Below, piece after piece: positions 5,546 to 37,083 of a stretch of 64,000 nt of DNA. How positions within the stretch are numbered: position 1 is the first letter of the stretch; the number at the start of each line of letters is the position of its first letter. Origin of the DNA: an archaeon (GTDB lineage Archaea > Nanobdellota > Nanobdellia > SCGC-AAA011-G17 > GW2011-AR20). The DNA lies in the NCBI GenBank assembly GCA_043808705.1, contig JAZDEO010000013.1, positions 8,081-72,080 on the forward strand. The letters run 5' to 3'. The notes beneath the pieces were generated by a model. The model was given only the letters and a program-made list of their open reading frames with translations. It was not told the origin of the DNA and did no database searches. Both the position numbers and the translations under genes were made by a program.

Positions 5546-7597
5546 CTATTGGCTGTTCTTCTCTAATTTTAATAAAGCATCCCACTCTTTATCAACATGT
5601 TCCTGTACTTTATCAAGAATCTTTTTATTTTCATCTTTTAGGAGATGTTTAAATCTTCCTTGAAGTTTTAAAAATTCAATTATAGGTAGTCTATTTTCAT
5701 TCTTATAATTTATAGTATATTTATTATTTTCAACCTCATATAAAGGCCAGAAATTAGTCTTAACAGCCAATTCAGCTATTTTAACAGCTAAATTTGTATC
5801 AAATCTCCATCCTAAAGTACAAGGTTGTAATACATTTATGAATGCAGGACCATTAGCATTAAAGGCCTTCTCAGCTTTATTATAGAGATCTATTAAATTA
5901 TTTAAAGAAGCTTGAGCAACATAAGGAATATTATGAGCAACAACAATTTTAGTTATATCTTTTCTAAATTTCTCTTTGCCTTGATGGAACTTTCCTACTG
6001 TTTCTGTTGTAGTATCAGCTCCAAAAGATGTTGCAGAACTTCTTTGAACTCCCGTATTATGAACTATAATCCCATTAGCAATAAAGTTATGTTCACCCTC
6101 AACTCTTAAATCTAATGTTGGTTCAACGCCTAACTGTTTAATATTTCTTACTTTTTCTATACTAAAATATTTATTTTCTATTAAGAAATTTTTGTATTTA
6201 TACTGATTTTTATATTTTTTAGTGTTCCATATTCCAAGTTTACTAAAGCACATATACCAATATTGTGTATCTTTTAATAATTTTCTATAAACCACAACTT
6301 TACCTTTTTTTATTTTTATATTATGTAATTTTCCAACTCTATAATTCATAGTTTGTAATAATAATCTTAATCTTTTAACTAGATCATAACTTGAAGAGGG
6401 ATATCTCCAACTTTCACCCATTTTATATCCATCAGATAACATTAACCCCTCTAAAAATTCTTCTTTTTCTTTCTTAGTTAATGTAAATATCCATGAAGGT
6501 ATTGTTTTATTTTTAGAACCTTTACCTAAACCCAGAGAATCAATGAACTTTACAACATTAATAGATCTTATATACACCTCATTCTTTGATTCTACCGGTT
6601 TAATTTTAAATACCTTCTTTATAAGATTGATTAGTACCTTTCTAGCTTTATCTTTTTCAGGTATAGCAAAAGCAACTTCTGCTTTTTCTGTTCTAGTCCA
6701 ACCATCACCTACCCACAAACCCAATAATTTCATTAAATCTTCATTTGATTTTTTAGGTATTTTTACTTTGTTAATTTTATTTACTTTATAATCACCTTTC
6801 TTAGAAATATTTATTGGTTCAAAAACGTATTTTTTACCTTCTTTCAAATCTTTTTGAACAACTAAATCATCCCCCATCTTAATATTCTCTAATCTTTTCC
6901 AAATAAACTCATTAGTATTACTACGTCCATTATGTTTTAAAACTAAAAAGGGATGATTTCCTGTAGCCTTAATATCGTGATGTAAGGTTGATAAACTATA
7001 AACTCTTTTTTTTCCATTATCAAAAACACCATCACATTTTTTTAAAACTAAATCATAATTTTTTTGATCAAAAGCATATACCATTTCACCTTTCTTTATT
7101 TCAGTTATTAATTTTAATCCTTTTTCAGTCAAAATTAGACTGTCCAAAGTTAAACAGTTCATATAAGCTTCATTATTATACAAAACATAAACAAATTTAT
7201 GTCCTCTTTCTAAAGCACCACTTAATGCCTGTAACCCAATATCATATGTGCCACCATCACCACCAAACGCAACAAAATTAATATCTTTTTTTATCTTATT
7301 TTTTTTCTTTAACACATTAAAAGCAGTTTCAACACCAGATATAGTTGAAGCTGCATTTTCAAATGCATTATGTATCCAAGGAACATTCCAGGAACTAAAA
7401 GGATATATGCTAGATGTAACCTCCAAGCACCCAGTAGCACAAGAAACAACAACAGGTTTTTTAGAAGTACTTAAAACAGTTCTAACTATTTGAGGAATAC
7501 CACAACCACTACATGTTCTATGACCAGAAACAAACTTTTTATTTACACTCTGATCATTTGCTAGTTCAATTATATTCATTTTAATTCTTAATATCAA
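5546..7597 (-). CDS. porB: pyruvate:ferredoxin oxidoreductase beta subunit (TPP-binding) interrupted by an intein
   Basis: Exteins: CSGCG…, [10 protein letters not shown], …NNEAYMN|TGVQRSS… (conserved Y-M-N-T-G motif is split). Spliced extein 316 aa, consistent with typical PorB size. Confidence 0.9.
6056..7156 (-). mobile_element. intein (367 aa) with LAGLIDADG homing-endonuclease domain inside porB
   Basis: Starts CLTLDS (block A), ends …GIIVHN followed by +1 Thr; internal [10 protein letters not shown] and [20 protein letters not shown] blocks; in-frame. Confidence 0.85.
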
Positions 7598-11043: not shown

Positions 11044-11654
11044 AGAAAAAACTAAAAATTTTAGCAGCAGGAGACATCCATGGTGATACTAGACTAGCTT
11101 ATTCTCTAGCAGATCAAGCAAAAAAGGAAAATGTTGATCTTGTTATTTTATGCGGGGATCTTACTTTTGGAGAAAGATCTACATCAAACATAATAGGGCC
11201 TTTTGTAAAGAAAAAACAGAAAGTCTTAATCATTCCAGGAAATCACGAAAGTTTTGCAACAGCAGACTTTTTAGCAGAAATGTACGGAGTCAAAAATATT
11301 CATGGTTACTATGTAAAATATAAGGGTGTTGGAATATTTGGATGCGGTGGAGCAAATATAGGAATCCATCAAATCTCTGAAGAAGAAATCTTTGATAATT
11401 TAAAAAAAGGTTTTTCAAATATTAAAGATTTGAACAAAAAGATAATGGTAACTCATGTTCATCCAGAGGGTGCTAAAATGGGAAAGTTTACTTCATTTTT
11501 TCCAGGATCATCAGGCGTTAAAAAAGCAATTAAAGATTTTAAACCGGATTTATTATTATGCAGCCATGTTCACGAAGCAGAGGGCATAGAAGAAAAACTT
11601 TATGATACAAAAGTTATAAATGTTGGAAGAAAAGGTAAAATAATAGAAATCTAG
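11040..11654 (+). CDS. calcineurin-like metallophosphoesterase
   Basis: AAGDIHGD, ILCGDLT, IPGNHE, VTHVHP motifs. Confidence 0.8.
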   Translation: MKKKLKILAAGDIHGDTRLAYSLADQAKKENVDLVILCGDLTFGERSTSNIIGPFVKKKQKVLIIPGNHESFATADFLAEMYGVKNIHGYYVKYKGVGIFGCGGANIGIHQISEEEIFDNLKKGFSNIKDLNKKIMVTHVHPEGAKMGKFTSFFPGSSGVKKAIKDFKPDLLLCSHVHEAEGIEEKLYDTKVINVGRKGKIIEI

Positions 11655-12385
11655 TTCTCATCTTTAAATATAATAATCTTATTTGGGTATACAACAACAC
11701 CATTATCAGTCATCTCCATTTTTATTGTTTTCTCAGCATGTCTCGTTCCCCTCATCTTTAATACCTCTATAGCCCTTTTTCTTATACCCTTCTCTTTTAC
11801 ATGATACATTAATATTATAGAATCGACCTCAAATTCTAATCCACCACTCTCAACCCGATCCATGTTTACGACATATTTTTCTGAAGTAAGTAATGTTGTG
11901 CAACCCCAGCTTCTTAATAACCCAAATAAAGATAAAGCAGCCTCTTTTTTTGCTAATTCATCTTGATATAACAAAACAAAAGAAGTAATAGAATCTATAA
12001 CCAATCTCTTAATATTGTATCTTGTTATAATATTCTCTATTAAACCTCCTCCTTCAACAAGCAATTTTTTTACTCTTTCAGGAGAATACTCTAAAAATAT
12101 AAACTTCTTTTCTTTTTCTAACTTTTCTAAATTCCATCCAAATTCAGACATATTCTCATAAAGCTCTTCCTTCTTTTCCTCAAAAGTTATATACATTCCA
12201 GGTTCATTATGTTTTAAGATTCCATTAACCAAATAAGCTACACTAAATATGGTTTTTCCAGAACCAGCCCCACCAATAATCAAATTCATACTCCTCTTCT
12301 TAAATCCACCGTTAACTAATTTATCAAAACCAGAAATATGTGTTGGAACTCTCTCAAACCTCGATTTTTTCATACTAAAATACAA
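11651..12385 (-). CDS. KaiC/RAD55-family RecA-like ATPase (FlaH-like?)
   Basis: RVPTHISGFDKLVNGG…IIGGAGSGKTIFS…LVIDSITS…LKMRGTRH; single KaiC domain, 244 aa, directly downstream of TadC-like gene. Confidence 0.7.
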   Translation of the reverse strand: MYFSMKKSRFERVPTHISGFDKLVNGGFKKRSMNLIIGGAGSGKTIFSVAYLVNGILKHNEPGMYITFEEKKEELYENMSEFGWNLEKLEKEKKFIFLEYSPERVKKLLVEGGGLIENIITRYNIKRLVIDSITSFVLLYQDELAKKEAALSLFGLLRSWGCTTLLTSEKYVVNMDRVESGGLEFEVDSIILMYHVKEKGIRKRAIEVLKMRGTRHAEKTIKMEMTDNGVVVYPNKIIIFKDEN

Positions 12386-12404
12386 AATTTTCTAATATAA
12401 AAAT

Positions 12405-13400
12405 CTATTGCATCATAAACAAACTACCCAACATGCTACTAACAATGAATCTTACCAAAAAGAACAAAAATATACTAAAAAATAAAACAGGTATTATATA
12501 CTTAAAACCCTCTTTTTCAGTACCTTTTTTTATCAAACCTATAAGCAAAGAACCAAAGAATGCTGTAGATATTAAAAATGCAACAATGTAAAAAATTAAA
12601 AAATCAATTGATACAGAAACCTTAGGAACAGCAAAAGGTAACCTAGCATTTCCTAAAGACTCCATATTAGGCACATTAACACTACTAATTGTTTTTGTTA
12701 AAATCTCTACTAAATAAGAAGATAATCCAAACAGAACAGGAGCCCCAATACATATAGCTACAAAGATAAACATTACATACATACCAACACTAGCTCTTAT
12801 TTTTTTATCAACCAAACTCTGATTTAACAAGTCTTCAGCAGTCTGTTCTAATAAAGAAGCAAGCTCTCCACCAGATCTTAAACCAGAAGTTATCAATAAA
12901 ATAGCTTTTTCTAATTTCTTTGACTTTACTCTTTGAGTCATTTCATTTAAAGCCCTTGTTATTTCCATACCTGCATTTATCTTTTTGCCAACAAGATTGA
13001 TTTCATCTTTTAAAGGACCAAATTCCGGTCTTATCGACATGAATAAAGCTCTATCTACAGTTAAACCAGCCCTTAAATTACTAGACATCAATTGTAGAGC
13101 ATCAGGTAAAACAGTCTCAATAAACTTTCCTTTTTTATCAGCATTAAATGTTAATAACATCATTTCAAAGATTATCATAAATAAAAAACATAATACAAAG
13201 ATCAAGAAAAAGTTTATTTTAAATAGAGCACCTAAATAAAATCCAAAGAGAGTAGAAATTAATAAATTAAACACTAAAATAAAACCTAAGAACTTATTAT
13301 AATCTGTCTTTAGATTAGAATACATTAATAAATTTATTATTTTTTTCTTTAAATTCTTTGGGTAAAAATTGCTTAATATTTTATAAAGTGTAGTAATCAT
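12405..13400 (-). CDS. type II secretion system F-domain membrane protein (TadC/EpdK/FlaJ-like)
   Basis: Multiple TM helices plus cytoplasmic T2SSF-like helical domain (LMSSNLRAGLTVDRAL…ITSGLRSGGELASLLEQTAEDL). Confidence 0.75.
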   Translation of the reverse strand: MITTLYKILSNFYPKNLKKKIINLLMYSNLKTDYNKFLGFILVFNLLISTLFGFYLGALFKINFFLIFVLCFLFMIIFEMMLLTFNADKKGKFIETVLPDALQLMSSNLRAGLTVDRALFMSIRPEFGPLKDEINLVGKKINAGMEITRALNEMTQRVKSKKLEKAILLITSGLRSGGELASLLEQTAEDLLNQSLVDKKIRASVGMYVMFIFVAICIGAPVLFGLSSYLVEILTKTISSVNVPNMESLGNARLPFAVPKVSVSIDFLIFYIVAFLISTAFFGSLLIGLIKKGTEKEGFKYIIPVLFFSIFLFFLVRFIVSSMLGSLFMMQ

Positions 13401-13401
13401 C

Positions 13402-14283
13402 TTAATCTCCTAATAAAGCAGGCCTCTTTGTTTTTATAAGTCCTAAAAAACTTATTTGAAATAAAAGTACAAATATAAATAATACTATTAAAAAAACCTT
13501 ATTTAAGTATTCGTTTAAAGATACAAAAGACGATATTACAACTAAAAAAGTGATTCCTAATGCTGGTGCAATTACTGCCAATAACATATAAAACATCGCT
13601 AATGGATTTAATTGACTGCCATAAGCCTCTATCTGAATTAATTGTTCCTGAGATAAAGATCTTATTATCTCATTTAAAACAGTAGTGATATTACTACCAG
13701 ATTTCATTCCATTTATCAATTGCCACATAACCTTCCTTAAGTAAATTGAAGAAGAATTCCTTTCTAATTCCTCTAAGACATCTATCTGAGGCGCTCCAGC
13801 ATTCATTTTTTTAACAACCTTTCCAAATAATTTAGATAGTTCTCCATAATTTGAATTTGATATAGAAATAAATATATCAAATAGATTAACTCCGGAATTA
13901 AGTTGTATGTATATTGTCCTTAAAGCAGGTAACAAGTTCCTTTCAATGTCCTTTGATTTTCTTCTAGCAATCAATTTTGGATATTTTAACTGTTGTAAGA
14001 AAACAAAAAAACTCAAGATTGAAGCAATAATAATTCCTAAATAAACATGACCTATTTTTATAAATATTACAGACAAAATTATAGCAATGAACAAAAAGAA
14101 TATTAATGTTGCAGCAACACACATACTAATATAATCTTTTACACCAACCTCTTGTTCAGATTGTTTCAATTCATTCTCAAGAAATGGAAGGAACTGTTTT
14201 AAAAACTCGCTAACACTCAAAAATCTCTTTCCAATAACTCTTAAATGGTTTATTGGTAAAATAGAAAAGGGTACCTTAATCAT
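13402..14283 (-). CDS. type II secretion system F-domain membrane protein (TadB/EpdJ/FlaJ-like)
   Basis: T2SSF-like helical domain (LNSGVNLFDIF…MKSGSNITTVLNEII) between TM helices. Confidence 0.75.
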   Translation of the reverse strand: MIKVPFSILPINHLRVIGKRFLSVSEFLKQFLPFLENELKQSEQEVGVKDYISMCVAATLIFFLFIAIILSVIFIKIGHVYLGIIIASILSFFVFLQQLKYPKLIARRKSKDIERNLLPALRTIYIQLNSGVNLFDIFISISNSNYGELSKLFGKVVKKMNAGAPQIDVLEELERNSSSIYLRKVMWQLINGMKSGSNITTVLNEIIRSLSQEQLIQIEAYGSQLNPLAMFYMLLAVIAPALGITFLVVISSFVSLNEYLNKVFLIVLFIFVLLFQISFLGLIKTKRPALLGD

Positions 14284-15784
14284 TTTTTAATAAGATCTTA
14301 TTAATGTCCATATTTTTCTTTACTATTTTTAACAATTCTTCTTTATTGAGATAATATTCTTTCATGACCTTTCCAACCTGATGTACATTTCTCACACTTT
14401 TTTTAACTAAAAAATCTAAAATATCCTTTTTTTCATTAATGTCGTCATCAATCTCATTCTGACTTAATCCAGTATGCCTACTCAATTGTTCAAATAATTT
14501 TACGCTAGGAAAGTATTTAGTTATTTTATCTGTAGAAGGATTCCATCTATAAATCAAATTAGGTTTAATCTTTCCTTCACTCTCCCCTAAGATAAATTCT
14601 CCAATATGATAAATCCTTCTAACATTTTTTCTTCTGTCTCTAAACATAACCACATTAAGATGAACAGCTTCAAGCAAATTTTCAGGAACCTCTATAGGAG
14701 GATTAATCAATCTTTTAATGGTCTCATTTGCGCTATCAGCATGTAATGTAGCATAAACACTATGGCCTGTATGCATAGCTTCAAATAAAACTCTTGCATC
14801 TTCACCCTTTCTAATTTCCCCTAAAATAAGTCTATCAGGTCTCATCCTTAATGCATTAATCATTAAATCTAACATACTTACTCCGCCCTCTCCCTCAGGA
14901 TTTGGTAATCTTGTTACTAAAGGACACCAGTAAAGATACTTAGGCAAATACAGTTCTCTAGTATCTTCTATACTTATTATTCTATGATTTGGTGGAATAA
15001 AAGGCATACATATGTTTAGCATAGTAGTCTTCCCTGAAGCTGTTCCCCCACTTACAATCATATTCATTTCATATTCCAAAGAAAGCCATATTAAAGCTAG
15101 AGCCTCAGAACTTATTACATTATCAGTGATTAGATCAGTCATAGTTATAGGATCACTTGAAAACTTTCTTAATATTATAGTATTACCTTTATTAGATATA
15201 GGATATAAAACAGAGTTTGCTCTATCACCAGAGATAAGGTGAGCATCAAGAAGAGGATTCAATATAGTTATTTGTTTTCCAACCTTTCTAGCAATTATAT
15301 TAGAATAATTAATAATCTGATCCTCACTTTCCATTTTAATATTTGTTGACAACCAACCATATTTTTTATGATAAACCCTTATAGGTTCATCAGCACAATT
15401 AATTATAATTTCTTCTAAATATCTGTCATGTAGAAAGTATTCTATTCTGCCTAATCCTAAAGTTTCATTAAGCAGGTAATCTATTAAGTAAGTTTTACTA
15501 GACTCAGATAATCCAGGCATGTAATCATCTAATAAAGAAACAGCCTTTTGTTTAAATCTCTCTTTAATCTCATCAGCAATCTTTGGATCTAATATCTCCT
15601 TTGATGTTAAATTTACCTCAGATATCAAAACATTCTTCAGTTCATCAATAAAAGCCAACGTTGGTTTTTTAAAAATAGACAAATCTAAAGTATAAACTAA
15701 GGAACTATCTTCTTGTTTAACTATTTTTATGTTAAGCTTTAGCTTATTAACTTCAATCTGATATTCTTCTACTATATTTCCCAT
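14276..15784 (-). CDS. type IV pilus/archaellum-family secretion ATPase (TadA/FlaI/VirB11-like)
   Basis: Walker A SGGTASGKTTMLN, Asp box, Walker B, His box (…ATLHADS…); 502 aa. Confidence 0.85.
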   Translation of the reverse strand: MGNIVEEYQIEVNKLKLNIKIVKQEDSSLVYTLDLSIFKKPTLAFIDELKNVLISEVNLTSKEILDPKIADEIKERFKQKAVSLLDDYMPGLSESSKTYLIDYLLNETLGLGRIEYFLHDRYLEEIIINCADEPIRVYHKKYGWLSTNIKMESEDQIINYSNIIARKVGKQITILNPLLDAHLISGDRANSVLYPISNKGNTIILRKFSSDPITMTDLITDNVISSEALALIWLSLEYEMNMIVSGGTASGKTTMLNICMPFIPPNHRIISIEDTRELYLPKYLYWCPLVTRLPNPEGEGGVSMLDLMINALRMRPDRLILGEIRKGEDARVLFEAMHTGHSVYATLHADSANETIKRLINPPIEVPENLLEAVHLNVVMFRDRRKNVRRIYHIGEFILGESEGKIKPNLIYRWNPSTDKITKYFPSVKLFEQLSRHTGLSQNEIDDDINEKKDILDFLVKKSVRNVHQVGKVMKEYYLNKEELLKIVKKNMDINKILLKND

Positions 15785-16653
15785 TTTTTAAAACTTATTT
15801 TATTTATTCCATGATAATGAACTTTTATTAATTCATGACTTTCTAATATCTTACCCCATCTCTCAGCATTTTCTCTAGTTACCTTAAATCTATCCATTAC
15901 GTCTTTTATATCCACAGAACCCTTTTCATTAACCCAATCATATAATATATCAACATAAGTCTCAAACTTTTTCAAAGGAACATTAGATTTCACAATTTCA
16001 ATATTTTTCTTATCAATAGTCTCTTTGCTAATTTTTTTATGCTCAAATTTAGGTATATTTCTTCTATTCATAAGACCCATAACCAAAACAAAAATACCTC
16101 CGATCAAGACTGCACCAAAAACGTAATAAAGAATCTCTTTATCCTTGCTTAAATTAATTATAAAATCTCTGCTTTGATATAAAAAGTAGATTACAATTAA
16201 AAAGAAAATAACTAAAATTATTTTTAAAAGAAACTTAAAATTAATCTTTTTGTCCAAACTCTTTATCTTTTCTCCAGAATCATTTTTGTTATTTTCACTA
16301 GAATCCTGTTTTCTTAAAACTTTAGGAATAGGGATCACAAAATCTATCTTTTTTTTATTTTCTTTTGAGGCGTTATATTCTTTTAATAAACCCTCAACAA
16401 GATTTTCAGGCCATTTCTCTTCTAAGAATTTCTTCTTGATAACATCAATAGAATAACCCCTTTTAACAGCATCTTTAATAACCGCCATAACCTGATTTTT
16501 ATTATACTTTAATTTATCAACAGGATGTTTATTATAATCTTTTTTATGAATCTCTTTCTTTAAAGAGTTTTTATGTTCTACATTCTTAATTAAATGTTTC
16601 TTATGATCTTTATGAATATTGCTCTTTTTCACACTCTTTTTTTTGATTTTCAT
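15772..16653 (-). CDS. membrane protein with Lys-rich N-terminus, 2 TM and C-terminal winged-helix-like domain; hypothetical
   Basis: ORF track; TM FLLKIILVIFFLIVIYFLY and VFGAVLIGGIFVLVMGLM; C-terminal helical domain. Confidence 0.4.
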   Translation of the reverse strand: MKIKKKSVKKSNIHKDHKKHLIKNVEHKNSLKKEIHKKDYNKHPVDKLKYNKNQVMAVIKDAVKRGYSIDVIKKKFLEEKWPENLVEGLLKEYNASKENKKKIDFVIPIPKVLRKQDSSENNKNDSGEKIKSLDKKINFKFLLKIILVIFFLIVIYFLYQSRDFIINLSKDKEILYYVFGAVLIGGIFVLVMGLMNRRNIPKFEHKKISKETIDKKNIEIVKSNVPLKKFETYVDILYDWVNEKGSVDIKDVMDRFKVTRENAERWGKILESHELIKVHYHGINKISFKKWEI

Positions 16654-17414
16654 CTTTTTTTACTTTTAATTAACAATCCAGTGGCTATAAATAATACAAT
16701 TATTCCTATAAATATTAACCACTTATAAACATTTTTGTTTTTAGGATCAATTTGTTTAATTTCTTTATTACCCTTCTCATCAAGTATATCTCCTTTTTGG
16801 GCATCAACATAAGTCCCATTTACATCCCAAATAAGTTTGAAATTACCTTCTTCTGTAGGAAGTATCTTTAATTCAGGTTGGCTATTTGAACTGGCTATAC
16901 TAGATGCCTGACCCGCACCTATTCCAGGACTTGTACTCTGAATATTAAAGGATGGATACCACATAAACCCTAATGAAAAAACCCCATAATCACCAACAGT
17001 TAGAATGCCAGCAAAGCTATTTACAACAGGTACACCATTACACTCCTGTTGATCAAAATTAAACAAGGTTAAACTTAAAGGATAGTTAGTTGTTTGTTCA
17101 ACAACAATCTCAACAGATTCTGGAATCCCTAAATCATCTCTATTTTCTTCTATAAATTCCGTTGCTAAAGCCAAAGCCTGCTCAATAGGCAATAATTGGC
17201 CATTCTCAGGAGGTTCAACATCAAGTCTTTCTACCTTTCTCATAATTCCATTTTGTATAGAAAATTCTTCAACACTCCACCAGCTTCCGTTCATAAAGAT
17301 AGTTCCTTGAGGGCTTATATTTGGAATTACCCACCCATTGAACTCACAATTTTCACTATTAACCTCTAAAGCAAAAAGAAGAATTAATACAAAAAACAGT
17401 AAATAAATTCTCAT
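16650..17414 (-). CDS. secreted/surface protein with N-terminal signal peptide and C-terminal TM anchor; hypothetical
   Basis: MRIYLLFFVLILLFALEVNS… and C-terminal WLIFIGIIVLFIATGLLIKSKKR. Confidence 0.45.
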   Translation of the reverse strand: MRIYLLFFVLILLFALEVNSENCEFNGWVIPNISPQGTIFMNGSWWSVEEFSIQNGIMRKVERLDVEPPENGQLLPIEQALALATEFIEENRDDLGIPESVEIVVEQTTNYPLSLTLFNFDQQECNGVPVVNSFAGILTVGDYGVFSLGFMWYPSFNIQSTSPGIGAGQASSIASSNSQPELKILPTEEGNFKLIWDVNGTYVDAQKGDILDEKGNKEIKQIDPKNKNVYKWLIFIGIIVLFIATGLLIKSKKR

Positions 17415-17515
17415 AACTTACTTAAATTTAAGATTGTATATTAATATTTGTTTTATCTCAATAATGGTTATAAATTCACATTAAATTTAAATAACTAAGG
17501 ATTAACGTATTAATC

Positions 17516-17926
17516 ATGATAAAAAAACAATCTCAAATTAGTGTGGAGTACATTGCATTAATATCTTTTGTTATTCTAATAGTTATGGCAATATACCTTA
17601 CATCTTATTCATACGCTAATTCAACAAAAGATACTGTTTTAATAAATCAAGTTGATAAGATAGCAAACACTATAATGGATAATGCAGAATCCGTTTATAA
17701 TTTAGGATATCCATCAAAAACCACAATAAAGATATATATACCAGAAAATATTAAATCCATAACCATCTCAAGTAATCAGATTACCTTTATTGTTTACACA
17801 ACATCCCAAGAAATTGAAATATTTAAAGAATCATCTATAGATTTAGAAGGTTCACTTTCAACAGTTCAAGGGCTTCATGAAGTAATCATTGAATCTACAG
17901 GAGATGGGGTCTTGATAAGAGAATGA
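17516..17926 (+). CDS. type IV pilin-like protein (class III signal peptide)
   Basis: MIKKQS|QISVEYIALISFVILIV: basic n-region, Gln then Glu at +5, hydrophobic helix; 136 aa. Confidence 0.6.
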   Translation: MIKKQSQISVEYIALISFVILIVMAIYLTSYSYANSTKDTVLINQVDKIANTIMDNAESVYNLGYPSKTTIKIYIPENIKSITISSNQITFIVYTTSQEIEIFKESSIDLEGSLSTVQGLHEVIIESTGDGVLIRE

Positions 17927-18303
17927 AAAGATCACAAGCATCTATAGAATTAATTATATTTGTTGGAATATCCCTAATAATCCTATTATTCTATTTTACC
18001 TTTATTTTTAATCAAACGCAAAAATATAATCTAGAAAAAGAAAAAATGTTAGGCCAAGATGTTATAAATAAAGTAAAAACAGAAATAGAGTTAGCCGATA
18101 CAGTAAGTAATGGATATCATAGAGATTTTGTAATACCAGAAACTTTAGAAGGTATAAACTATAATATAACAATAAGTGATAGAGAACTTACTTTAAGCAC
18201 TGAAAACTTTCAACTTATTAAAATAATACCTGAAGTAATAGGAAACATACAAAAAAATATTAATACATTAAAAAAAGAGGACAATGTCATCTATCTCAAC
18301 TAA
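17923..18303 (+). CDS. type IV pilin-like protein (class III signal peptide)
   Basis: MKRS|QASIELIIFVGISLIILLF; same architecture, 126 aa; 4-nt overlap with upstream gene. Confidence 0.6.
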   Translation: MKRSQASIELIIFVGISLIILLFYFTFIFNQTQKYNLEKEKMLGQDVINKVKTEIELADTVSNGYHRDFVIPETLEGINYNITISDRELTLSTENFQLIKIIPEVIGNIQKNINTLKKEDNVIYLN

Positions 18304-18787
18304 ATCACAATTATGGAGTATTGATTTTTTATTAGGTATGTTCATCTTTATATTATCCATAATATTCCTTTATAATTATATAATAAACACCCCTATAAAT
18401 AGTGATAGTACTATTATATCTGAATCATATATTATCTCTTCATCTCTATTATCAAAAGGCTATCCTATTGATTGGACCTTAAATAATGTAAGTAAAATAG
18501 GGATTGTTTCAGATAAAAGAATAAACTCAACAAAATTAGAATATTTGTCTGAAATGGATTATAGTGAAACAAAAAGTAAACTTAACATATTCAATGATTA
18601 TTATATATTCTTTTTAGATAAAAATAATCAATTATATCTCATAAATAACATAACTGGAATAGGAAAGCCTAATGTAAATAGCACAAACTTAAAACAAGTA
18701 GAAAATCCAAAGAATATAGTAAGAGTAGACAGAATTACTATACACAATAGTACTATAATAAAGATGGTGATCTACACATGGGGCTAA
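18284..18787 (+). CDS. pilin-like protein with N-terminal hydrophobic helix
   Basis: MSSISTKSQLWSIDFLLGMFIFILSIIFL…; 167 aa, same operon. Confidence 0.45.
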   Translation: MSSISTKSQLWSIDFLLGMFIFILSIIFLYNYIINTPINSDSTIISESYIISSSLLSKGYPIDWTLNNVSKIGIVSDKRINSTKLEYLSEMDYSETKSKLNIFNDYYIFFLDKNNQLYLINNITGIGKPNVNSTNLKQVENPKNIVRVDRITIHNSTIIKMVIYTWG

Positions 18788-21366
18788 AAGGGTATAAAGG
18801 ATATTTATTCAGTTTAGATGCCTTAATAAGTTTATTTTTAATAATTATCTTAATCCTATTGCTTCCAGGTTTTTATTCATACAAATCAGAAACGAAAAAC
18901 CTCAATTATATCTCTACAGATATTACAAATACTCTTTCTACATTAAAAGTTAATGAAATAAACAATGACTATGTAAAAACTTTAATCCAAAATAATGAAA
19001 TAACAAACCTAAATAATACTATTTTAGAACAGATAGGAGAGTTTTGGGCTCTAGGCAAAGAAGATGAAGCTCTACTTTTAATAAACAATACAATAAGCTT
19101 TTTTGTTCCAGAAGTATATAGTTATGGTATATGGATTAATAATCAAGAGATTTACAGTTCTAATAGAACAAACAAAAAACAATTGGTTGTTGCTCGAGAC
19201 CTAGTATCAGGCATACAAGAAGGACAAGCGATTTATGGACTAACAGCTAGAGTTCTTTTAAATTCAATAAATCAAAGAACATCTTCAAGTTTCGCTTTTT
19301 TTGGCGGCTATGTAGGTGATGGAAGAATATCCAAATATTTGATATTGCCTTCAACAGTAAACTCTATAAGCGAAGCATATATAGAATTAGATGTAGGTAA
19401 TAATTTTAATTTATATATAAATAACAACTTTTCAGGCACTTACACAAAACCAACTTCAGGTGTAGGGAAATATTATATAAATAATTCTTATTTAAACAAT
19501 TTTCATGAGGGCATTAACATAATATTGATAAATTTTACAACACCAGCTTCAAATTACATTGGAGGAGGTTATTTTAAAGTTAAATACCAAACATCAGAAA
19601 TAGAATTACTACAGATAAATTCAACAGATACAGACTATTTTCCAGGTATTGAAGGAATAATTAATATATATTCTTCAATCTATTCTCCAGGAAACATAAG
19701 CGCAATTGAAATTTACTTACATTATTACAATAATTATTCTATGTTTCTAAATATAGGAAACACAACAGTTTTTAATCAAACAAATTCAAGTTTAGAACAA
19801 TCTATATTAATTACTAATTCTCAAATACAATCAAAATTAAACTATGCACAATTAAGTAAAAAAACAGTTCCAATAAGGATAGGAACACAAGGAGGGAATG
19901 TTACATTTTATCAACAGGTTCCAAGTGACGTAATCTTAGTTACAGACACATCAGGAAGTATGTCAACTCAAGATATTTTAGGAGCTCCAGGATTAAGTAG
20001 ATTAGCTGTAGCAAAACAATTAGACAGAATCTTTGTTGATACTGTTCTAAACAGTTCAATTAACAGAGTTGGTTTAGTAAGTTACGCATCAACATTGAGG
20101 AGTTATGTTAATTTAACAAACAACAATCAAACACTCCAGAATGAAATAAATAGTTATACATCATCAGGTTCAACATGCATCTGTTGTGGCTTAAACAAAT
20201 CAATCAATATGTTGAATACACAAAGTACTTCACAAAAATATAAGTCAGTTGTTTTAATGAGTGATGGTGAAGCGAATGTAAGATGCACAACCAATTATCC
20301 ATGCCAATGTATAATGTGGGTTTGGGGTTTTTGTTGGTTTTGGGACTGTACTTTAGCAGCAAAAAAAGACGCAATTGATTTTGCATGTAATGCATCTAAA
20401 CTTTATAATATAACTGTCCATTCTGTAGGCTTAGGCCAAGAAGCAGATCTAGCAACTCTAAGAAACATTTCAGATTGTGGTAATGGTACATTCTATTCAA
20501 GTAATAATTTTACAGAACTTCAAGAGATATATAAAACTTTAGCAATAGAAGCAACATCAGCTCCATTAAGTTATGTAGAACAAACAGTTTCATTTTCAAA
20601 TACCTCCTCAAGACTATATCCAGACTCTTACATTAAAATAGATTATCAAAGAGAACTTCCATTATTACAATATAATTATATTACAATTCCTATTGAAACA
20701 CCAAGATTCAATAATGAAATAACAGAAGGTAACTTTTTCATACCATCTCAAGTATCAGTTATTGATGCAAGAATAACATCTTACTCAGCAAGTAAATGGA
20801 CAAATGATTTAAAGATCTATAATTCTGGAAATTTATGGACCAACTTATTTAATTTATCAAAGTATGGCCAAAATTATGAAACCTTAGGAGACCCATATAC
20901 AGTAAATATACCCTCAGAATACGTAAAGACAAATGAAAATAATTCAATAAGAATCTCTACAGGGCTTTCCCCATCAAATTATACAGGAGGTAATATAGAT
21001 GACAGAGCCATTTACACAATTGGCTTAAATCTATTTTTTAATTATTCTGGTGTGTTCCCAAAAGCGGAGGGATGTGACTGGTACTTAAATTTTGAAGATG
21101 GAAGTAATGCCACGATTTCAATACCACAAAATTATAGTTTAGACGAAATGTGTTATTACACAAGCTCTACTAATTGTGATGTAGATTATGGTGATGATGC
21201 AATAAATAATGCAGCATGCCACCTCTTCTTGCAATTAGACTTCGACAATAATGGAAAATTATATGTAAATTTTGACGAAGGGGATATAGATATAGACATT
21301 ATATCTGTCCCAGGAATACCTTACATGTGGGGTCCTGCATTAATTGAGGTAAGAACATGGCAATAA
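18778..21366 (+). CDS. large pilin-like surface protein with von Willebrand factor A (vWA) domain and Cys/Trp-rich segment
   Basis: N-term MGLKGYKGYLFSLDALISLFLIIILILLL (class III-like). vWA MIDAS DVILVTDTSGSM…SDGEAN. Cys/Trp-rich CICCGLNKS…CTTNYPCQCIMWVWGFCWFWDC. Asn/Ser/Thr-rich, 862 aa. Confidence 0.65.
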   Translation: MGLKGYKGYLFSLDALISLFLIIILILLLPGFYSYKSETKNLNYISTDITNTLSTLKVNEINNDYVKTLIQNNEITNLNNTILEQIGEFWALGKEDEALLLINNTISFFVPEVYSYGIWINNQEIYSSNRTNKKQLVVARDLVSGIQEGQAIYGLTARVLLNSINQRTSSSFAFFGGYVGDGRISKYLILPSTVNSISEAYIELDVGNNFNLYINNNFSGTYTKPTSGVGKYYINNSYLNNFHEGINIILINFTTPASNYIGGGYFKVKYQTSEIELLQINSTDTDYFPGIEGIINIYSSIYSPGNISAIEIYLHYYNNYSMFLNIGNTTVFNQTNSSLEQSILITNSQIQSKLNYAQLSKKTVPIRIGTQGGNVTFYQQVPSDVILVTDTSGSMSTQDILGAPGLSRLAVAKQLDRIFVDTVLNSSINRVGLVSYASTLRSYVNLTNNNQTLQNEINSYTSSGSTCICCGLNKSINMLNTQSTSQKYKSVVLMSDGEANVRCTTNYPCQCIMWVWGFCWFWDCTLAAKKDAIDFACNASKLYNITVHSVGLGQEADLATLRNISDCGNGTFYSSNNFTELQEIYKTLAIEATSAPLSYVEQTVSFSNTSSRLYPDSYIKIDYQRELPLLQYNYITIPIETPRFNNEITEGNFFIPSQVSVIDARITSYSASKWTNDLKIYNSGNLWTNLFNLSKYGQNYETLGDPYTVNIPSEYVKTNENNSIRISTGLSPSNYTGGNIDDRAIYTIGLNLFFNYSGVFPKAEGCDWYLNFEDGSNATISIPQNYSLDEMCYYTSSTNCDVDYGDDAINNAACHLFLQLDFDNNGKLYVNFDEGDIDIDIISVPGIPYMWGPALIEVRTWQ

Positions 21367-22283
21367 ATAAAAGAGGCATGGTTTTTTCTATAATAACAAT
21401 AGCTATGATAACTATGTTTATAATATTCTTAGTTTCACAAAATCAATATAAGTTATCTGACAAAACAGATTCAGATTCTATAAGGATAATTACCATGAAC
21501 GAATTTATTAATGACGTTGAATTAGATCTAGAAAGAGGTATGTATATATCAGGATTCAGATCAATCTTGTCTATGAATGAGTATATTGCAAATAATGGGG
21601 TATTCTTAATTAATACAGAGTCTTCATTTAAAGAGGCATTCTTCAACGGTTCAATAAATAACCAACAGAGTTCTTTAATGACCTCAGCAACATTCCCAAA
21701 TTGGATTAGTAATATACAATCAAAAGCAGACTTATTTAATCTTAATATAGAGTTTGAAAATGAACATTTGGAAGTTTTACAAAGAGAGCCTTGGTATATC
21801 ACCTTAATTTATAACGCAACTATAAACTTAACAGACAAACAAAACACAGCTTATTGGATAAAGTATGAATCAATTGAAACCCAAATAAACATAAACGGTT
21901 TTGAAGATCCACTATATATAATAAAGAGTTATGGAGTATCTACTAATATAATCAATCAAACAATTTATGCAGGTAATTATGTAAATGGGTTAGATGTTTC
22001 AAATCTTTACAATCATGTTGATAACTCATTATATGATCATAATCCAAATGCCACTAACTTTTTAATGAGATTTGAAAATAATCTAAATCCATCTTCATGT
22101 TGCGGTATAGAAAGTTTTGTTAATGAACAAGAATTAAATCCACAACAGAGTTCAGATAAAAGTAATATCGACTGGATATTCTTTAATCCGTCATTAAATC
22201 CTGCTTCTCATACAGTAACAGGTATGCAATCATGGTTTAGAATAGATTCAGAATATGAGCATAATACTCAGTATAATGCGTAA
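21357..22283 (+). CDS. pilin-like protein (class III signal peptide KRG|M)
   Basis: MAINKRG|MVFSIITIAMITMFIIFLV; 308 aa, last gene of the operon. Confidence 0.55.
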   Translation: MAINKRGMVFSIITIAMITMFIIFLVSQNQYKLSDKTDSDSIRIITMNEFINDVELDLERGMYISGFRSILSMNEYIANNGVFLINTESSFKEAFFNGSINNQQSSLMTSATFPNWISNIQSKADLFNLNIEFENEHLEVLQREPWYITLIYNATINLTDKQNTAYWIKYESIETQININGFEDPLYIIKSYGVSTNIINQTIYAGNYVNGLDVSNLYNHVDNSLYDHNPNATNFLMRFENNLNPSSCCGIESFVNEQELNPQQSSDKSNIDWIFFNPSLNPASHTVTGMQSWFRIDSEYEHNTQYNA

Positions 22284-34470: not shown

Positions 34471-37083
34471 ATGGGAATCAATATTTGGGAACTTTTCCCT
34501 AAAAAAGAAATTAAAATTAGTGATTTAAAAGGAAAAGTTTTAGCAGTAGACGCTAGTCCTGTTATCTATCAGTTTTTAGCTTCTATTAGGCAACGTGATG
34601 GAACACTTTTAATGGATTCTAAAGGAGAAATAACCAGCCATCTTATGGGTCTAAGTACTAGAATAACCAAATTAATGTCTGAAGGATTAAAATTGATATT
34701 CTGTTTTGATGGTCGTCCACCAGATCTAAAGATCCATGAAAGAGAAGAAAGAGAATATAGAAAGAGAATAGCAGAAAAAAAGCTAAAACAAGCTCAGAAA
34801 GAAGGAGATATAGAATCTATGTTAAAATATTCAAAACAAACAATCAGATTAAATGATAAAATTATTTCTGAATCAAAAGAGTTATTAAAAGCTTTAGGAA
34901 TCCCAGTAATTCAAGCAGTTTCAGAAGCTGAAGCACAATGCGCTTTTATTGCAGAGCAAGGAGATGCATGGGGTGTTGTTAGTCAAGATGCAGATACATT
35001 ATTATTCAGAGCACCAAGGTTAATTAGAAATCTTACTATTTCACAAAGAAAGAGATTACCTTCAGGTTCAGTAATACAAACTAAACCAGAGTTAATAGAA
35101 TTACAACAAACACTAAAACAACTTAAAATTAATCAAGATAGGTTAATTGCCTTAGGAATTCTTGTGGGAAGTGTTGATCATAACGAACCTACAATAATTA
35201 AAAATAGAGGCATAATACAAGTTAATCCTATAGGAGAATGCCCAATTAGTTCCCACTTAGAGGTTCCATGTTTCGATAAAAAAACAAAAAAAATTGTGTT
35301 TAAAAGAGTAAAAGGATTTATCAAACACAAGATCAATGAACCATTATATGAGATTACAACAGTATATAATAGGAAAGTAAAAGTAACAAAGTCTCATAGT
35401 CTTTTTATCAAAAATAGTGATAATAATATTACTGTGGTTAAAACCACAGATCTAAAAAAAGGAGATAAATTAGTTATACCTTTTAAAATACCATTTCAAA
35501 ATAAAAAAATAGATAAAATAAATCTAGCCCAAGAATTATGGAAACATAGAGATAAAATAAAGAGATTAACTTATTGTGATGGAAAAAATATACAAAAAAT
35601 AATCAAAGATAGATTATCAATTAAAAAAAGCAGATTATTTAATAAGAGATATATCTTAACTAAGTTTGGTCTAAAAAGATTAAAAGAATTAAGAATAAAC
35701 AAAGAAGTTACGACAATGAAGACACCATTAAGCTCTAACACACTTTATGGGTGGGAAAATGGATTAATCTCTCCAACAGAAACTAAGTTTAAAGAATATT
35801 TAAATTTTCTAGGATCAAATTTAAAAGAGTTTAATATAAATAACAATTGTATCAAAAGAATTAGAAATTCAGTTTTTGAGGAAAATATTTCTCCACGGAT
35901 GAACTACAAAAACAAATATAGACAAACAATATTATTTAAAACATTATCTAAAAAAGAAGTTAAGCTATTATCTCAGAAAGATTTTATTTATGGTAGAACA
36001 AGAGATACTAATCAAGTGTCATCAATATTAAAGATAACCTCAGAATTAATGAGGATTATTGGTTACTTTCTTGCTGAAGGCCATCTTAATGGTAACTATA
36101 GGATAAATTTTAGTTTTGCATTACCTTCTATAGGGCATGATGATTTTTGTGTAAATGACACAGTTTATTGCATAAAAAAAGTATTTAACATTAAACCAAA
36201 AGTTTACCACGAGAAATCTACAAGACACATTTGTTTAGATAATTGTGTGATTCATGATTTTTTTGCCTATGTTCTAGAATTGGAAAAACAAGGTTCAAAA
36301 AACAAAAAAATACCTTCTTTAATATTTAATGTAAGTCAAAAATTTCAGTTGGAGTTTTTAAAAGGACTTTTTTTAGGTGATGGAAGTATAGATAAAAACC
36401 ATATATCCTTTAATACAGCAAGTTATGACATGGCTATAGGTCTTTCTTACATCTTTTTGCAACAAGGTATTATTTCTTCCACTAGTTTTCAAAATAGAAA
36501 AAATAATAATATGAAACTTTTACATGTTTGTGGAAAGAACCAAATAACAAATATTAAAAAGATATGGGAAAAACATAATAAAGCTAAACGTCTAATTGAT
36601 TATTGTAAAAGACCACTAAAACAAAAACAAATTATTGATATAGAAGGAGATCTAGGATATGTTAAAATTAAATCTATTGTTAAAGTAAAACCCTTTAATA
36701 GCGAGGTATATGACTTTTCAGTAGACGGTGAAAATTTTATCGCCGGTTTTGGAGGGGTGTGTTGTCATAATACAGATTATAATATTGGTGGAGTAAGAAA
36801 AATTGGACCTAAGATAGGTTTAAAATTAGTACAACAAAACAAAGATCTCGATAAAATATTTGAAGAGGTCAAGGCAGAATTTGACTGGAAACAAATTTAT
36901 AACACTTTTATATCAATGCCTGTTACAAAAGATTATCAGTTAAAATGGAATCCAATAGATGAAGACAAAATAAAAGAAATTCTAATTGAAAAACATGATT
37001 TTAATAAAGAGAGAGTTGAAAAAACACTACAAAACTTAAGCACCAGGGATAAGAAACAATCATCCCTATCTGATTGGTCATAA
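34471..37083 (+). CDS. fen: flap endonuclease FEN-1 interrupted by a 534-aa intein
   Basis: N-terminal MGINIWELFPKKEI…AVDASPVIYQFLASIRQRDGTLLMDSKGEITSHLMGL (strong FEN-1 match). Exteins …ILVG | TDYNIGGVRKIGPKIG (H3TH motif split). Spliced extein 336 aa. Confidence 0.9.
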   Translation: MGINIWELFPKKEIKISDLKGKVLAVDASPVIYQFLASIRQRDGTLLMDSKGEITSHLMGLSTRITKLMSEGLKLIFCFDGRPPDLKIHEREEREYRKRIAEKKLKQAQKEGDIESMLKYSKQTIRLNDKIISESKELLKALGIPVIQAVSEAEAQCAFIAEQGDAWGVVSQDADTLLFRAPRLIRNLTISQRKRLPSGSVIQTKPELIELQQTLKQLKINQDRLIALGILVGSVDHNEPTIIKNRGIIQVNPIGECPISSHLEVPCFDKKTKKIVFKRVKGFIKHKINEPLYEITTVYNRKVKVTKSHSLFIKNSDNNITVVKTTDLKKGDKLVIPFKIPFQNKKIDKINLAQELWKHRDKIKRLTYCDGKNIQKIIKDRLSIKKSRLFNKRYILTKFGLKRLKELRINKEVTTMKTPLSSNTLYGWENGLISPTETKFKEYLNFLGSNLKEFNINNNCIKRIRNSVFEENISPRMNYKNKYRQTILFKTLSKKEVKLLSQKDFIYGRTRDTNQVSSILKITSELMRIIGYFLAEGHLNGNYRINFSFALPSIGHDDFCVNDTVYCIKKVFNIKPKVYHEKSTRHICLDNCVIHDFFAYVLELEKQGSKNKKIPSLIFNVSQKFQLEFLKGLFLGDGSIDKNHISFNTASYDMAIGLSYIFLQQGIISSTSFQNRKNNNMKLLHVCGKNQITNIKKIWEKHNKAKRLIDYCKRPLKQKQIIDIEGDLGYVKIKSIVKVKPFNSEVYDFSVDGENFIAGFGGVCCHNTDYNIGGVRKIGPKIGLKLVQQNKDLDKIFEEVKAEFDWKQIYNTFISMPVTKDYQLKWNPIDEDKIKEILIEKHDFNKERVEKTLQNLSTRDKKQSSLSDWS
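35170..36771 (+). mobile_element. intein with LAGLIDADG homing endonuclease inside fen
   Basis: Begins at Ser (SVDHN…), ends …GGVCCHN + Thr(+1); LAGLIDADG blocks IIGYFLAEGHLNG and FLKGLFLGDGSID; in-frame. Confidence 0.8.

Follow-up and report, generated by a model that had tools for sequence, protein, structure and literature searches.

In Archaea, an assembly platform that is split into two genes is typical of the Epd-like pili ("system 1") and of the clade 2 pili, and it is likewise typical of the bacterial Tad system (PMC4858521, PMC6668835). An evolutionary link between Tad and the archaeal Epd-like systems has been proposed, and a secondary ATPase, FlaH-like or TadZ, is found in Epd and Tad loci (PMC6668835). 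Furthermore, KaiC-type ATPases as well as split platforms recur in the type IV pilus loci of Archaea (PMC4858521; PMC6668835). Type IV pilus loci are known from the cluster-2 DPANN archaea, and a role in host interaction has been proposed for them (Hamm et al. 2024, PMC11291902). In addition, a survey of archaeal type IV filaments from 2026 (bioRxiv 10.64898/2026.04.22.720090) described loci of DPANN archaea in which a pilin and two platform genes are accompanied by an adhesin "remotely homologous to PilY". Few DPANN archaea have been cultivated, and little is therefore known about the way in which they locate their hosts and stay attached to them. In this study, a locus of eleven genes was analyzed, which lies in a 64,000-nucleotide (nt) stretch (64 kb; hereafter the window) of contig JAZDEO010000013.1 of assembly GCA_043808705.1, from a DPANN archaeon with a guanine plus cytosine (GC) content of 28%. 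The locus comprises a minus-strand operon with predicted motor genes and a divergent plus-strand operon of five pilin-like genes, pil1, pil2, pil3, a gene for a protein with a von Willebrand factor A (vWA) domain, and pil5 (Table 1). With a probability of about 65%, it encodes both the machine that assembles a type IV filament (pilus) conserved across DPANN archaea and the minor pilins of that filament with their tip adhesin.

The locus contained three of the components by which a type IV filament is recognized, namely a T2SSE ATPase, a T2SSF platform, and class III subunits with a hydrophobic helix. The hallmark of Epd and Tad, a platform divided into two single-T2SSF genes beside the ATPase gene (definition in PMC6668835), was present as well. 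The initial annotation of the window agreed with our results in most respects. Its Tad/Epd-like type IV filament machine with a split platform and a divergent class III operon, and the DPANN organism that it had considered, were upheld by family matches, synteny, cleavage motifs, and structure prediction, and all eleven open reading frames (ORFs) that it listed were found at their positions. The content that it gave for the minus-strand operon (a secreted protein, a membrane protein with a winged helix, a FlaI/TadA-type ATPase, two single-T2SSF genes, and a KaiC ATPase) was borne out. A motif scan and family-wide conservation confirmed its five overlapping genes with class III N-termini. Moreover, its choice of the 862-amino acid (aa) vWA protein, with a metal ion-dependent adhesion site (MIDAS), as an adhesin candidate was strengthened by a complete, conserved MIDAS and by a predicted structure resembling pilus-tip vWA adhesins.

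The locus was compared with the archaeal Epd-like ("system 1") or euryarchaeal clade 2 pili, such as Epd of Methanococcus maripaludis and PilB3/PilB4 of Haloferax volcanii (Makarova et al. 2016, Denise et al. 2019). Like these systems, it combined an ATPase of the FlaI/TadA family with two single-T2SSF platform genes, several minor pilins in one operon, pilins of the QxSxE(F/Y) type (PF04021/UPF0333), and a secondary RecA-like ATPase beside the core genes. It also had weak matches to the haloarchaeal families DUF7266, DUF7287, and PilB3_C. The likeness of the ATPase to those of Epd and Tad was judged by pairwise and profile scores. In contrast to the Epd-like systems, the secondary ATPase was KaiC-CI-like instead of FlaH-like (arCOG04148) or MinD/TadZ-like, and neither an EppA-type peptidase with nine transmembrane segments nor TadV, as known from Epd-like and Tad systems, was found in the locus or the window. 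Furthermore, the vWA/MIDAS pilin and the pil5 family had no counterpart in the characterized Epd or H. volcanii systems.

The bacterial Tad (Flp) system showed the same order of genes, ATPase, platform 1, and platform 2, and the same split platform. In addition, Tad, whose function is adhesive, possesses a set of minor pilins with a large vWA-bearing pilin-like protein (TadE/F and the vWA-containing TadG), as does the present locus. However, the locus contained no secretin, TadZ, TadV, or Flp-type short pilin, and its vWA protein had no sequence match to the TadE/G N-terminal family. Among solved structures, the closest to the window ATPase was GspE2 of Archaeoglobus fulgidus (2OAP, E 2.3e-75), followed by FlaI (1.6e-56), and CpaF was more distant (3e-49). 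Compared with the DPANN loci of Hamm et al. and of the 2026 survey, the locus belonged to the same lineages (Woese-, Pace-, Nano-, and Aenigmatarchaeota) and had core genes of the same CpaF/TadC type, and two platform genes and a candidate adhesin were likewise common to both; the marker coiled-coil proteins of the loci of Hamm et al. were absent here.

The conservation of the gene block was investigated in a scan in which each GTDB species was represented by one genome. Relatives of the vWA protein were found in 499 of these species-level genomes, and more than 450 strong homologues with a source name were labelled Woesearchaeota, Nanoarchaeota, or Nanoarchaeia. For the synteny work 80 loci were kept, and their ORFs were searched with the eleven proteins of the window. 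Most of these loci were titled Woese-, Pace-, Nano-, Aenigmat-, Alti-, or Parvarchaeota; some titles of SPIRE-type metagenome-assembled genomes read "uncultured Methanosarcinales", which looks like a labelling default. The gene order recurred in these 80 independent species-level loci, and the five-pilin block lay beside the ATPase and platform genes in about 90% of the long related contigs. The counts for single components were taken from the 35 loci of at least 20 kb (Table 1). The vWA gene was located between pil3 and pil5 in nearly all loci, and pil3, where present, was directly upstream of the vWA gene in most of them. Two arrangements were recognized. In 25 loci the motor operon was divergent from the pilin genes and upstream of them, as in the window (ATPase E about 1e-180), and in 22 loci it was encoded downstream of pil5 in the same direction (ATPase E about 1e-145). 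The closest relative, GCA_018830825.1 (locus L086), possessed a vWA protein with 71% identity and the identical layout of eleven genes, flanked by the genes for SerRS and a metallophosphoesterase and by that for topoisomerase IA. In this relative, an additional protein of 327 aa with matches to CBM96 and disaggregatase repeats, of a surface protein type, was encoded between the metallophosphoesterase gene and KaiC (L086:2010-2993); the window did not contain it.

In an alignment of 35 full-length homologues of the 862-aa vWA protein, the MIDAS residues D390, S392, and T466 were at least 90% conserved, and S394 and D496 were invariant. The N-terminus KKG↓xFFSLDA (the arrow marks the predicted cleavage site) and several cysteines, including a TCICCG motif, were conserved in the same alignment. 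The AlphaFold (AF2) model, with a predicted local distance difference test (pLDDT) score of 84, began with an N-terminal hydrophobic helix (residues 6-32) and a helical segment (40-105). Next came a beta-rich domain (115-370) whose strands were unusually long, then the vWA domain (383-595), and finally a C-terminal beta domain (600-862). When the model was compared with the PDB by Foldseek, the best matches were the inter-alpha-inhibitor heavy chain, Streptococcus sanguinis PilB (7B7P, 3e-12), PitA, SpaC, and Mfa5. The best multi-domain structural matches were pilus-tip vWA adhesins, a modular type IV pilin among them. The protein contained 29 N-x-S/T sequons (3.4 per 100 aa), compared with 16 ± 3.5 in composition-matched shuffles (z = 3.7) and 0.1-0.8 per 100 aa in cytoplasmic proteins of the window. 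This excess fits an N-glycosylated extracellular protein. Homologues of 1,100-1,460 aa also existed, some of them with lectin-like Pfam domains (PF06439, PF13385, PF07953), and two or three tandem vWA paralogs of about 1,370 aa each were observed at L024:2994-9835, L031:7043-13851, and L044:2835-13842. The length variants and tandem copies suggest rapid diversification, the pattern expected of a diversifying adhesin.

A direct bacterial precedent for such a vWA pilin is PilB of S. sanguinis, a minor pilin that binds host proteins through its vWA/MIDAS module, which has been modelled at the pilus tip (PMC8179133). Like PilB and PilY1, the archaeal protein had a class III N-terminus followed by a vWA domain with a functional-type MIDAS, and it was encoded together with minor pilins. 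A tip position and an adhesive role are likewise predicted for it. The archaeal protein differed in being twice as long as PilB, with an extra beta-rich domain of 250 aa before the vWA domain and a beta domain of 260 aa after it, and in having no sequence homology to PilB outside the vWA domain. In addition, no PilY1-type beta-propeller was detected in it.

The five plus-strand genes overlapped by 4 to 20 nt. At the N-terminus of each product, a short basic stretch with [KR]x?[GAS] at its end preceded about 20 hydrophobic residues; the sequences read MIKKQS↓QISVEY (pil1), MKRS↓QASIEL (pil2), MSSISTKS↓QLWSID (pil3), MGLKGYKG↓YLFSLD (vWA), and MAINKRG↓MVFSII (pil5). A regular expression for the class III pattern was run on all ORFs of the 64 kb, alternative starts included, and recovered the five genes; besides these, it matched two multi-pass membrane proteins other than pilins (one of them an M48 peptidase) and artefacts of internal starts. 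The acidic residue was E+5 in pil1 and pil2 and D+6 in pil3 and the vWA protein. Class_IIIsignal (PF04021), which is the QxSxExxxL motif of EppA substrates, matched 16 of 57 pil1 members and 15 of 59 pil2 members. Relatives of pil1 carried the label "UPF0333 family" at JGI, and 24 of the 59 pil2 members matched DUF7266. The pil3 family kept Q..W..D and matched DUF7287 in just 4 of 50 members, with otherwise essentially nothing in Pfam. The AF2 model of pil1 (pLDDT 93, from an alignment of 68 sequences) showed a helix of 60 residues (4-63) and, after it, a beta head that had five strands and measured about 70 aa. The predicted fold thus has the "lollipop" topology of a pilin, and it is from this topology and the motif that pil1 is taken to be one.

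The pil5 family comprised 1042 cluster representatives at 50% identity with E <= 1e-3, of which 205 had E <= 1e-30, and it had no Pfam family. It kept KKG↓xxFT without an acidic residue. A distal cap is a plausible role for pil5, because it is the sole member of the set without an acidic residue at +5/+6, like GspK of the type II secretion pseudopili.

The genes of the minus-strand operon overlapped their neighbours by 4-13 nt or were separated by gaps of at most 19 nt. The assembly ATPase carried Walker A (GGTASGKT), an Asp box, Walker B (DRLILGEIR), and a His box (HTGHSVYATLHA). The TadB-like and TadC-like platform proteins were paralogs of each other, with 26% identity (E 2e-9). The winged-helix-like membrane protein had no Pfam family, and in an alignment of 31 homologues its sole conserved element was ETDxDxLY...F.V..E.A.EW.KILE.H.L..I.YP., in which T232, D235, W266, and E271 were invariant. 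The transmembrane segments lay before or after this element, depending on the lineage. Identity to the closest relative was 57% over the C-terminal 150 aa. The gene preceded the ATPase gene at every locus where it was detected, and its count among the long loci (Table 1) is an underestimate, because only about 60 aa of the protein are conserved. From this position, the protein may be a membrane-tethered adaptor or regulator of the ATPase. The first gene of the operon encoded a surface protein that had no family match in Pfam or NCBIfam. A homologue with 56% identity was present in the nearest relative, and the protein was otherwise not conserved, with a single weak match (E 7e-4) in the 80 GTDB loci; it is lineage-specific. 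The AT-rich region between the two operons presumably holds both promoters. A TTTAAATA element preceded the pil1 ATG by 22-29 nt, and runs resembling TATA were seen in the opposite direction, although the AT-richness of the region makes the match to the element non-significant.

Additional genes were observed beside the motor genes of some related loci. In L004 (1660-3201), a second, more distant T2SSE ATPase of 513 aa (E 4e-77 to the window ATPase, with a weak match to PF27713) was encoded convergently to the TadC gene; in this lineage, it may serve as a second motor or as an ATPase of the retraction type. In L001 (16194-19507, the same region as L020), which belongs to the "downstream" subtype, three unassigned genes for proteins of 659, 254, and 185 aa were located between the TadB-like gene and the ATPase gene. 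The protein of 254 aa had six predicted transmembrane segments and no Pfam match, and the three genes may encode accessory parts specific to this subtype.

A candidate for the major pilin was found in the related loci. Near the pilin block, class III proteins of about 140-170 aa were encoded whose N-terminus, [KR][GAS]↓QAAMEFLMTYGWAIL, was almost invariant across phyla. With a hidden Markov model built from twelve such proteins, members of this "QAAMEF-type" family were detected at 50 of 85 loci. Each of these loci had one to several copies, and the genes were located directly after pil5, after TadC, or before pil1. The family had no Pfam match, and no description of the QAAMEFLMTYGWAIL pilin or of the QAAMEFLMTYGW motif was found in the searchable literature. 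Judged from the sequences, this family is probably the major pilin of the system, because its N-terminal helix is extremely conserved, its genes occur in multiple copies, and its members are small. Unlike the headless major pilins of Epd and Flp (EpdE/Flp), the pilins described here possess globular heads, as in the model of pil1, and the QAAMEF-type proteins are not short (140-170 aa). In the window no QAAMEFLMTYGWAIL pilin was found (best E 0.87 by tblastn and 0.81 by hmmsearch with filters off), nor any further pilin gene beyond the five; in the closest relative none was present within 10 kb (best E 0.18). Because the QAAMEFLMTYGWAIL gene is absent and the five genes are tightly coupled in translation, the window operon most likely encodes the minor-pilin/priming and tip-adhesin set, with the shaft subunit encoded elsewhere.

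The KaiC-like gene probably starts at the ATG of residue 5, which gives a protein of about 240 aa. The initial annotation had placed a KaiC-family ATPase in the position that FlaH occupies in archaellum operons; the KaiC family was confirmed. In NCBIfam, the protein scored 172.8 bits with KaiC, 45.7 bits with ArlH (cut-off 215), and 37.4 and 22.9 bits with two FlaH models. The best match in the PDB was KaiC (6.5e-63); PH0186 and PH0284 were also matched, and no FlaH chain was among the matches at E <= 1e-3. Furthermore, the protein aligned with the CI domain of KaiC in Walker A (GGAGSGKT), the TFEE glutamate pair, Walker B (VIDS), and the arginine-finger region (LKMRGTRH), and it is probably an active ATPase because these elements align. 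On the NCBIfam cut-off, the PDB matches, and this alignment, an identity with FlaH/ArlH was rejected. By sequence alone the protein grouped with the COG0467 proteins, an outcome that the initial annotation had named as refuting its reading, and it was gene order that restored the tie with the pilus. Orthologs (E 1e-58 to 1e-88) adjoined the TadC-like gene in 16 of the 25 "divergent" loci and in none of the 22 "downstream" loci. Two further, rearranged loci (L064 and L079) kept the ortholog beside the TadC-like gene, giving 18 loci in total. Previous work found the KaiC families arCOG01171, 01174, and 01175 to be strongly associated with archaeal type IV pilus loci (PMC4858521). From sequence and synteny, we conclude that the KaiC-like protein is a putative motor accessory specific to a sublineage, and neither a core part nor FlaH.

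In two Woesearchaeota loci (Yap and YT1; L002:1548-3669 and L007:1276-2690), a divergent paralog of KaiC (E about 1e-26) came after the KaiC ortholog as a second gene of this family. L002 additionally encoded, beside the two KaiC genes, a DUF7504 protein that weakly matched KaiC. These clusters may be a small KaiC-based module.

In the favoured reading, the five prepilins would insert into the membrane, be trimmed at [KR][GAS]↓Q/x by a prepilin peptidase encoded elsewhere, and assemble on the TadB/TadC-like platform with power from a hexameric ATPase. A priming complex of pil3, the vWA protein, and pil5, in which pil1 and pil2 would probably take part, would end up at the filament tip and might resemble GspHIJK, the PilVWX-PilY1 set, TadE/F/G, or S. 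sanguinis PilA/B/C. In this complex pil5, lacking the acidic residue, would be the cap, and the vWA module, which would be glycosylated, would offer its MIDAS to a ligand carried by a host cell or surface. The shaft would be polymerized from a separate QAAMEFLMTYGWAIL-type major pilin, encoded beside these genes in most related loci and not in the window. The KaiC-like ATPase might modulate the motor or couple to it, like FlaH in archaella or TadZ in Tad, having been recruited from the KaiC branch itself.

Several results weigh against this reading. No major pilin was found in the window, hence a complete filament cannot be demonstrated for this genome. No A24 prepilin peptidase was detected among the membrane-rich ORFs of the window by Pfam (Peptidase_A24) and visual check, nor was any prepilin peptidase among 10 membrane-rich ORFs from nine related loci; the initial annotation had already reported that the window lacks both a prepilin peptidase and an archaellin, and the Pfam search of all membrane-rich ORFs, with NCBIfam for the archaellin, bore this out. 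The pil1 model had no significant match to a solved pilin in the PDB by Foldseek (best E 0.035). The KaiC gene was absent from the 22 "downstream" loci and from several Aenigmatarchaeota loci, and so it is not a core part. Moreover, the arrangement of the tip complex and the functions proposed for pil5 (as cap) and for KaiC are drawn by analogy, and no result here shows that the organism lives on a host. The locus is a reasonable candidate for holding to hosts or surfaces, with attachment to a host being what we infer from it. Four unassigned polytopic ORFs of the window had no GxGD-type motifs, and two of them looked like spurious antisense ORFs. At 38816-40033 on the minus strand, the window also encoded a protein of 405 aa with about six transmembrane segments, a linker rich in Gly, Pro, and Gln, and a helical C-terminal domain; it had no Pfam family and by its motifs was not a prepilin peptidase.

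The absence of a QAAMEF-type gene within reach in the window and its closest relative, and within 10 kb in about one third of the related loci, could also mean that the locus is self-sufficient, with pil1, or pil1 together with pil2, as the major pilin and the five genes alone building a short adhesive fibre. Pil1 is the first gene of its operon and encodes a small protein with the Epd-type QxSxE motif and a model of a long N-terminal helix with a small beta head, as such a role would require. However, pil1 overlaps pil2 by 4 nt in a translationally coupled operon, which fits equal amounts of the proteins and not a subunit in large excess. Its N-terminal helix was also far less conserved than that of the QAAMEFLMTYGWAIL family, whose frequent co-location, often in several copies, speaks for a separate shaft subunit. 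We therefore regard a self-sufficient locus as unlikely. It is still less likely that the machine builds a short pseudopilus for secretion or DNA uptake, or a bindosome-like display of the vWA protein and pil5 at the membrane. In favour of such a role, DPANN cells are dependent on imported nucleotides and lipids, the five pilin-like proteins mirror the pseudopilins of type II secretion, and a major pilin is missing from the window. In addition, the ATPase matched the bindosome model BasE (3.2e-35), and the N-terminus of pil5 gave a faint match to BasA in NCBIfam. These scores, 121.8 bits for BasE (cut-off 1000) and 14.6 bits for BasA (cut-off 230), were however far below the cut-offs, and no solute-binding protein, as would belong to a bindosome assembly system (Bas), was found. 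Furthermore, the Pfam and NCBIfam scans revealed no substrate-binding protein, secretin, ComEC-like channel, or nuclease at the locus; most related loci were accompanied by the conserved candidate major pilin, and it was pilus-tip adhesins that the vWA protein resembled in structure.

For the KaiC-type gene, the question is whether it only adjoins the pilus operon, as a housekeeping or regulatory gene with no relation to it. Its product has the sequence of an ordinary single-domain KaiC/COG0467 protein, several "divergent" loci lack the gene, as do all the "downstream" ones, and Archaea carry many KaiC paralogs (PMC4858521). Against this stands its adjacency to TadC, with a distance of 6-225 bp in most of the 18 ortholog-bearing loci across several orders, and a gap of 19-31 bp in the window. 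The adjacency was kept where the strand was inverted (L077 and L084), where the locus was rearranged (L064 and L079), and where the SerRS and metallophosphoesterase neighbours had been relocated (L002), which makes a chance neighbour an improbable explanation. Hardly any weight can be given to an archaellum or an archaellum-derived system. The best NCBIfam score of the ATPase was indeed that of the FlaI model (E 3.1e-81), and, like FlaH, a RecA/KaiC-like ATPase is encoded after the platform genes. Nevertheless, the FlaI score of 273.7 bits was below the cut-off of 550, as was the ArlH score given above; the TadB-like protein weakly matched the N-terminal half of ArlJ/FlaJ, with 25.2 bits for the ArlJ model (cut-off 550). 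The platform is split in two genes, the nearest solved ATPase is GspE2 and not FlaI, and neither archaellin nor ArlF/G, ArlX, or ArlC/D/E was found at the locus by Pfam and NCBIfam. On these cut-offs and missing genes (ArlH among them) the archaellum was rejected, and the words "or archaellum-related" in the initial annotation found no support.

The type IV filament with its tip-adhesin set thus remains the reading that we favour, and the locus is a well-supported, widely conserved candidate attachment system that will not surprise specialists. Since machines of this kind are well known and surveys already list type IV pilus loci of DPANN archaea, the result refines known biology and does not overturn it. 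In the earlier literature, the terms "vWA" and "KaiC" were absent from the text of the 2026 survey (10.64898/2026.04.22.720090), and "vWA" was absent from that of Hamm et al. (PMC11291902). The five-gene pilin block, an archaeal MIDAS-vWA protein with a pilin N-terminus, the pil5 family, the QAAMEFLMTYGWAIL pilin, and the link of DPANN pili to KaiC-CI were in none of PMC4858521, PMC6668835, PMC11291902, and 10.64898/2026.04.22.720090. Literature searches on DPANN with vWA, or with pili and von Willebrand, gave no description of the pilin set. The bacterial strategy of grafting an adhesin module on a minor pilin would be extended to Archaea by these results. The module occurs in about 500 species-level genomes and has an obvious ligand-binding part, the MIDAS vWA on a pilin N-terminus. 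It also includes conserved families without a database model, namely pil5 (more than 1,000 clusters), the candidate major pilin, and the membrane winged-helix protein, and it provides targets for antibodies, metaproteomics, cryo-electron tomography, and heterologous binding assays.

A broader proposal is tentative. The block of pil1-3, the vWA protein, pil5, the QAAMEFLMTYGWAIL shaft pilin, the split-platform motor, and the winged-helix protein might be a general attachment organelle of Nanoarchaeota-type DPANN archaea. Its glycosylated MIDAS-vWA tip pilin would set host specificity and diversify by domain accretion and tandem duplication, and a KaiC-type ATPase, not FlaH, would have been recruited independently as a second ATPase or switch. 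If this were true, host recognition in hundreds of uncultured DPANN species could be approached through one and the same handle, defined by sequence.

Table 1. Positions of the locus features in the window, main observations, and number of related loci of at least 20 kb (n = 35) with each component. Positions of the last row refer to related loci.
Feature	Position (nt)	Strand	Main observations	Loci with component
KaiC-CI-like single-domain ATPase of the RecA superfamily, 244 aa	11651..12385	-	Pfam KaiC PF06745, E 2.9e-59	
TadC/EpdK-like platform protein	12405..13400	-	One T2SSF domain, Pfam 4.2e-16; at least 5 predicted transmembrane segments	30/35
TadB/EpdJ-like platform protein	13402..14283	-	One T2SSF domain, Pfam 1.6e-16	30/35
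Assembly ATPase, FlaI/TadA/GspE2 family	14276..15784	-	Pfam T2SSE 2.1e-33; weak PilB3_C match	32/35
Winged-helix-like membrane protein, 293 aa	15772..16653	-	Conserved C-terminal domain of about 60 aa; gene end overlaps ATPase start	16/35
Surface protein, 254 aa	16650..17414	-	Sec-type signal peptide and C-terminal transmembrane anchor; first gene of minus-strand operon	
Divergent intergenic region	17415..17515		AT-rich; presumed site of both promoters	
pil1, 136 aa (NCBI locus tag V1663_01905)	17516..17926	+	QxSxE-type class III N-terminus; Q7 and E11 (Q+1, E+5) invariant in 57 homologues	30-31 of 35 (pil1, pil2, pil3)
pil2, 126 aa	17923..18303	+	Q5 invariant, E9 at least 90% conserved in 59 homologues	30-31 of 35 (pil1, pil2, pil3)
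pil3, 167 aa	18284..18787	+	KS↓QLWSID, acidic at +6; Q9 and D14 at least 90% conserved in 50 homologues	30-31 of 35 (pil1, pil2, pil3)
Modular pilin-like vWA/MIDAS protein, 862 aa; candidate tip adhesin	18778..21366	+	Pfam VWA 6.5e-15, residues 384-586	
pil5, 308 aa; candidate distal cap	21357..22283	+	KRG↓MVFSII; class III-like N-terminus conserved in 66 homologues	34/35 (following vWA gene)
QAAMEFLMTYGWAIL pilins (examples)	L002:13811-14269; L002:14306-14764; L018:13831-14277; L041:18451-18909; L066:18017-18511			

The possibility that the locus is a genomic island was considered and found no support. In 2-kb bins, the GC content of the window was 26-31% throughout except for one bin of 34%, distant from the locus, and this uniform GC content and the same housekeeping neighbours in the closest relative both spoke against an island.

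Elsewhere in the window, inteins with LAGLIDADG homing-endonuclease domains were found in four genes, an unusually high load for 64 kb. They were located in the genes for FEN1/XPG (870 aa, 34471-37083, plus strand), topoisomerase VI subunit B (1039 aa, 60596-63715, plus strand), a HerA-like DUF87 ATPase (807 aa, 41430-43853, minus strand), and the thiamine pyrophosphate-binding subunit of a 2-oxoacid:ferredoxin oxidoreductase (683 aa, 5546-7597, minus strand). Of these, FEN1 and the oxidoreductase beta subunit look like uncommon intein hosts. In addition, ARAGORN predicted a tRNA-Ala gene of 88 nt with the anticodon AGC at 1685-1772, of which Rfam covered only 1698-1764 (34 bits). The gene may hold an intron or be atypical, because the two programs disagree on its length and boundaries.

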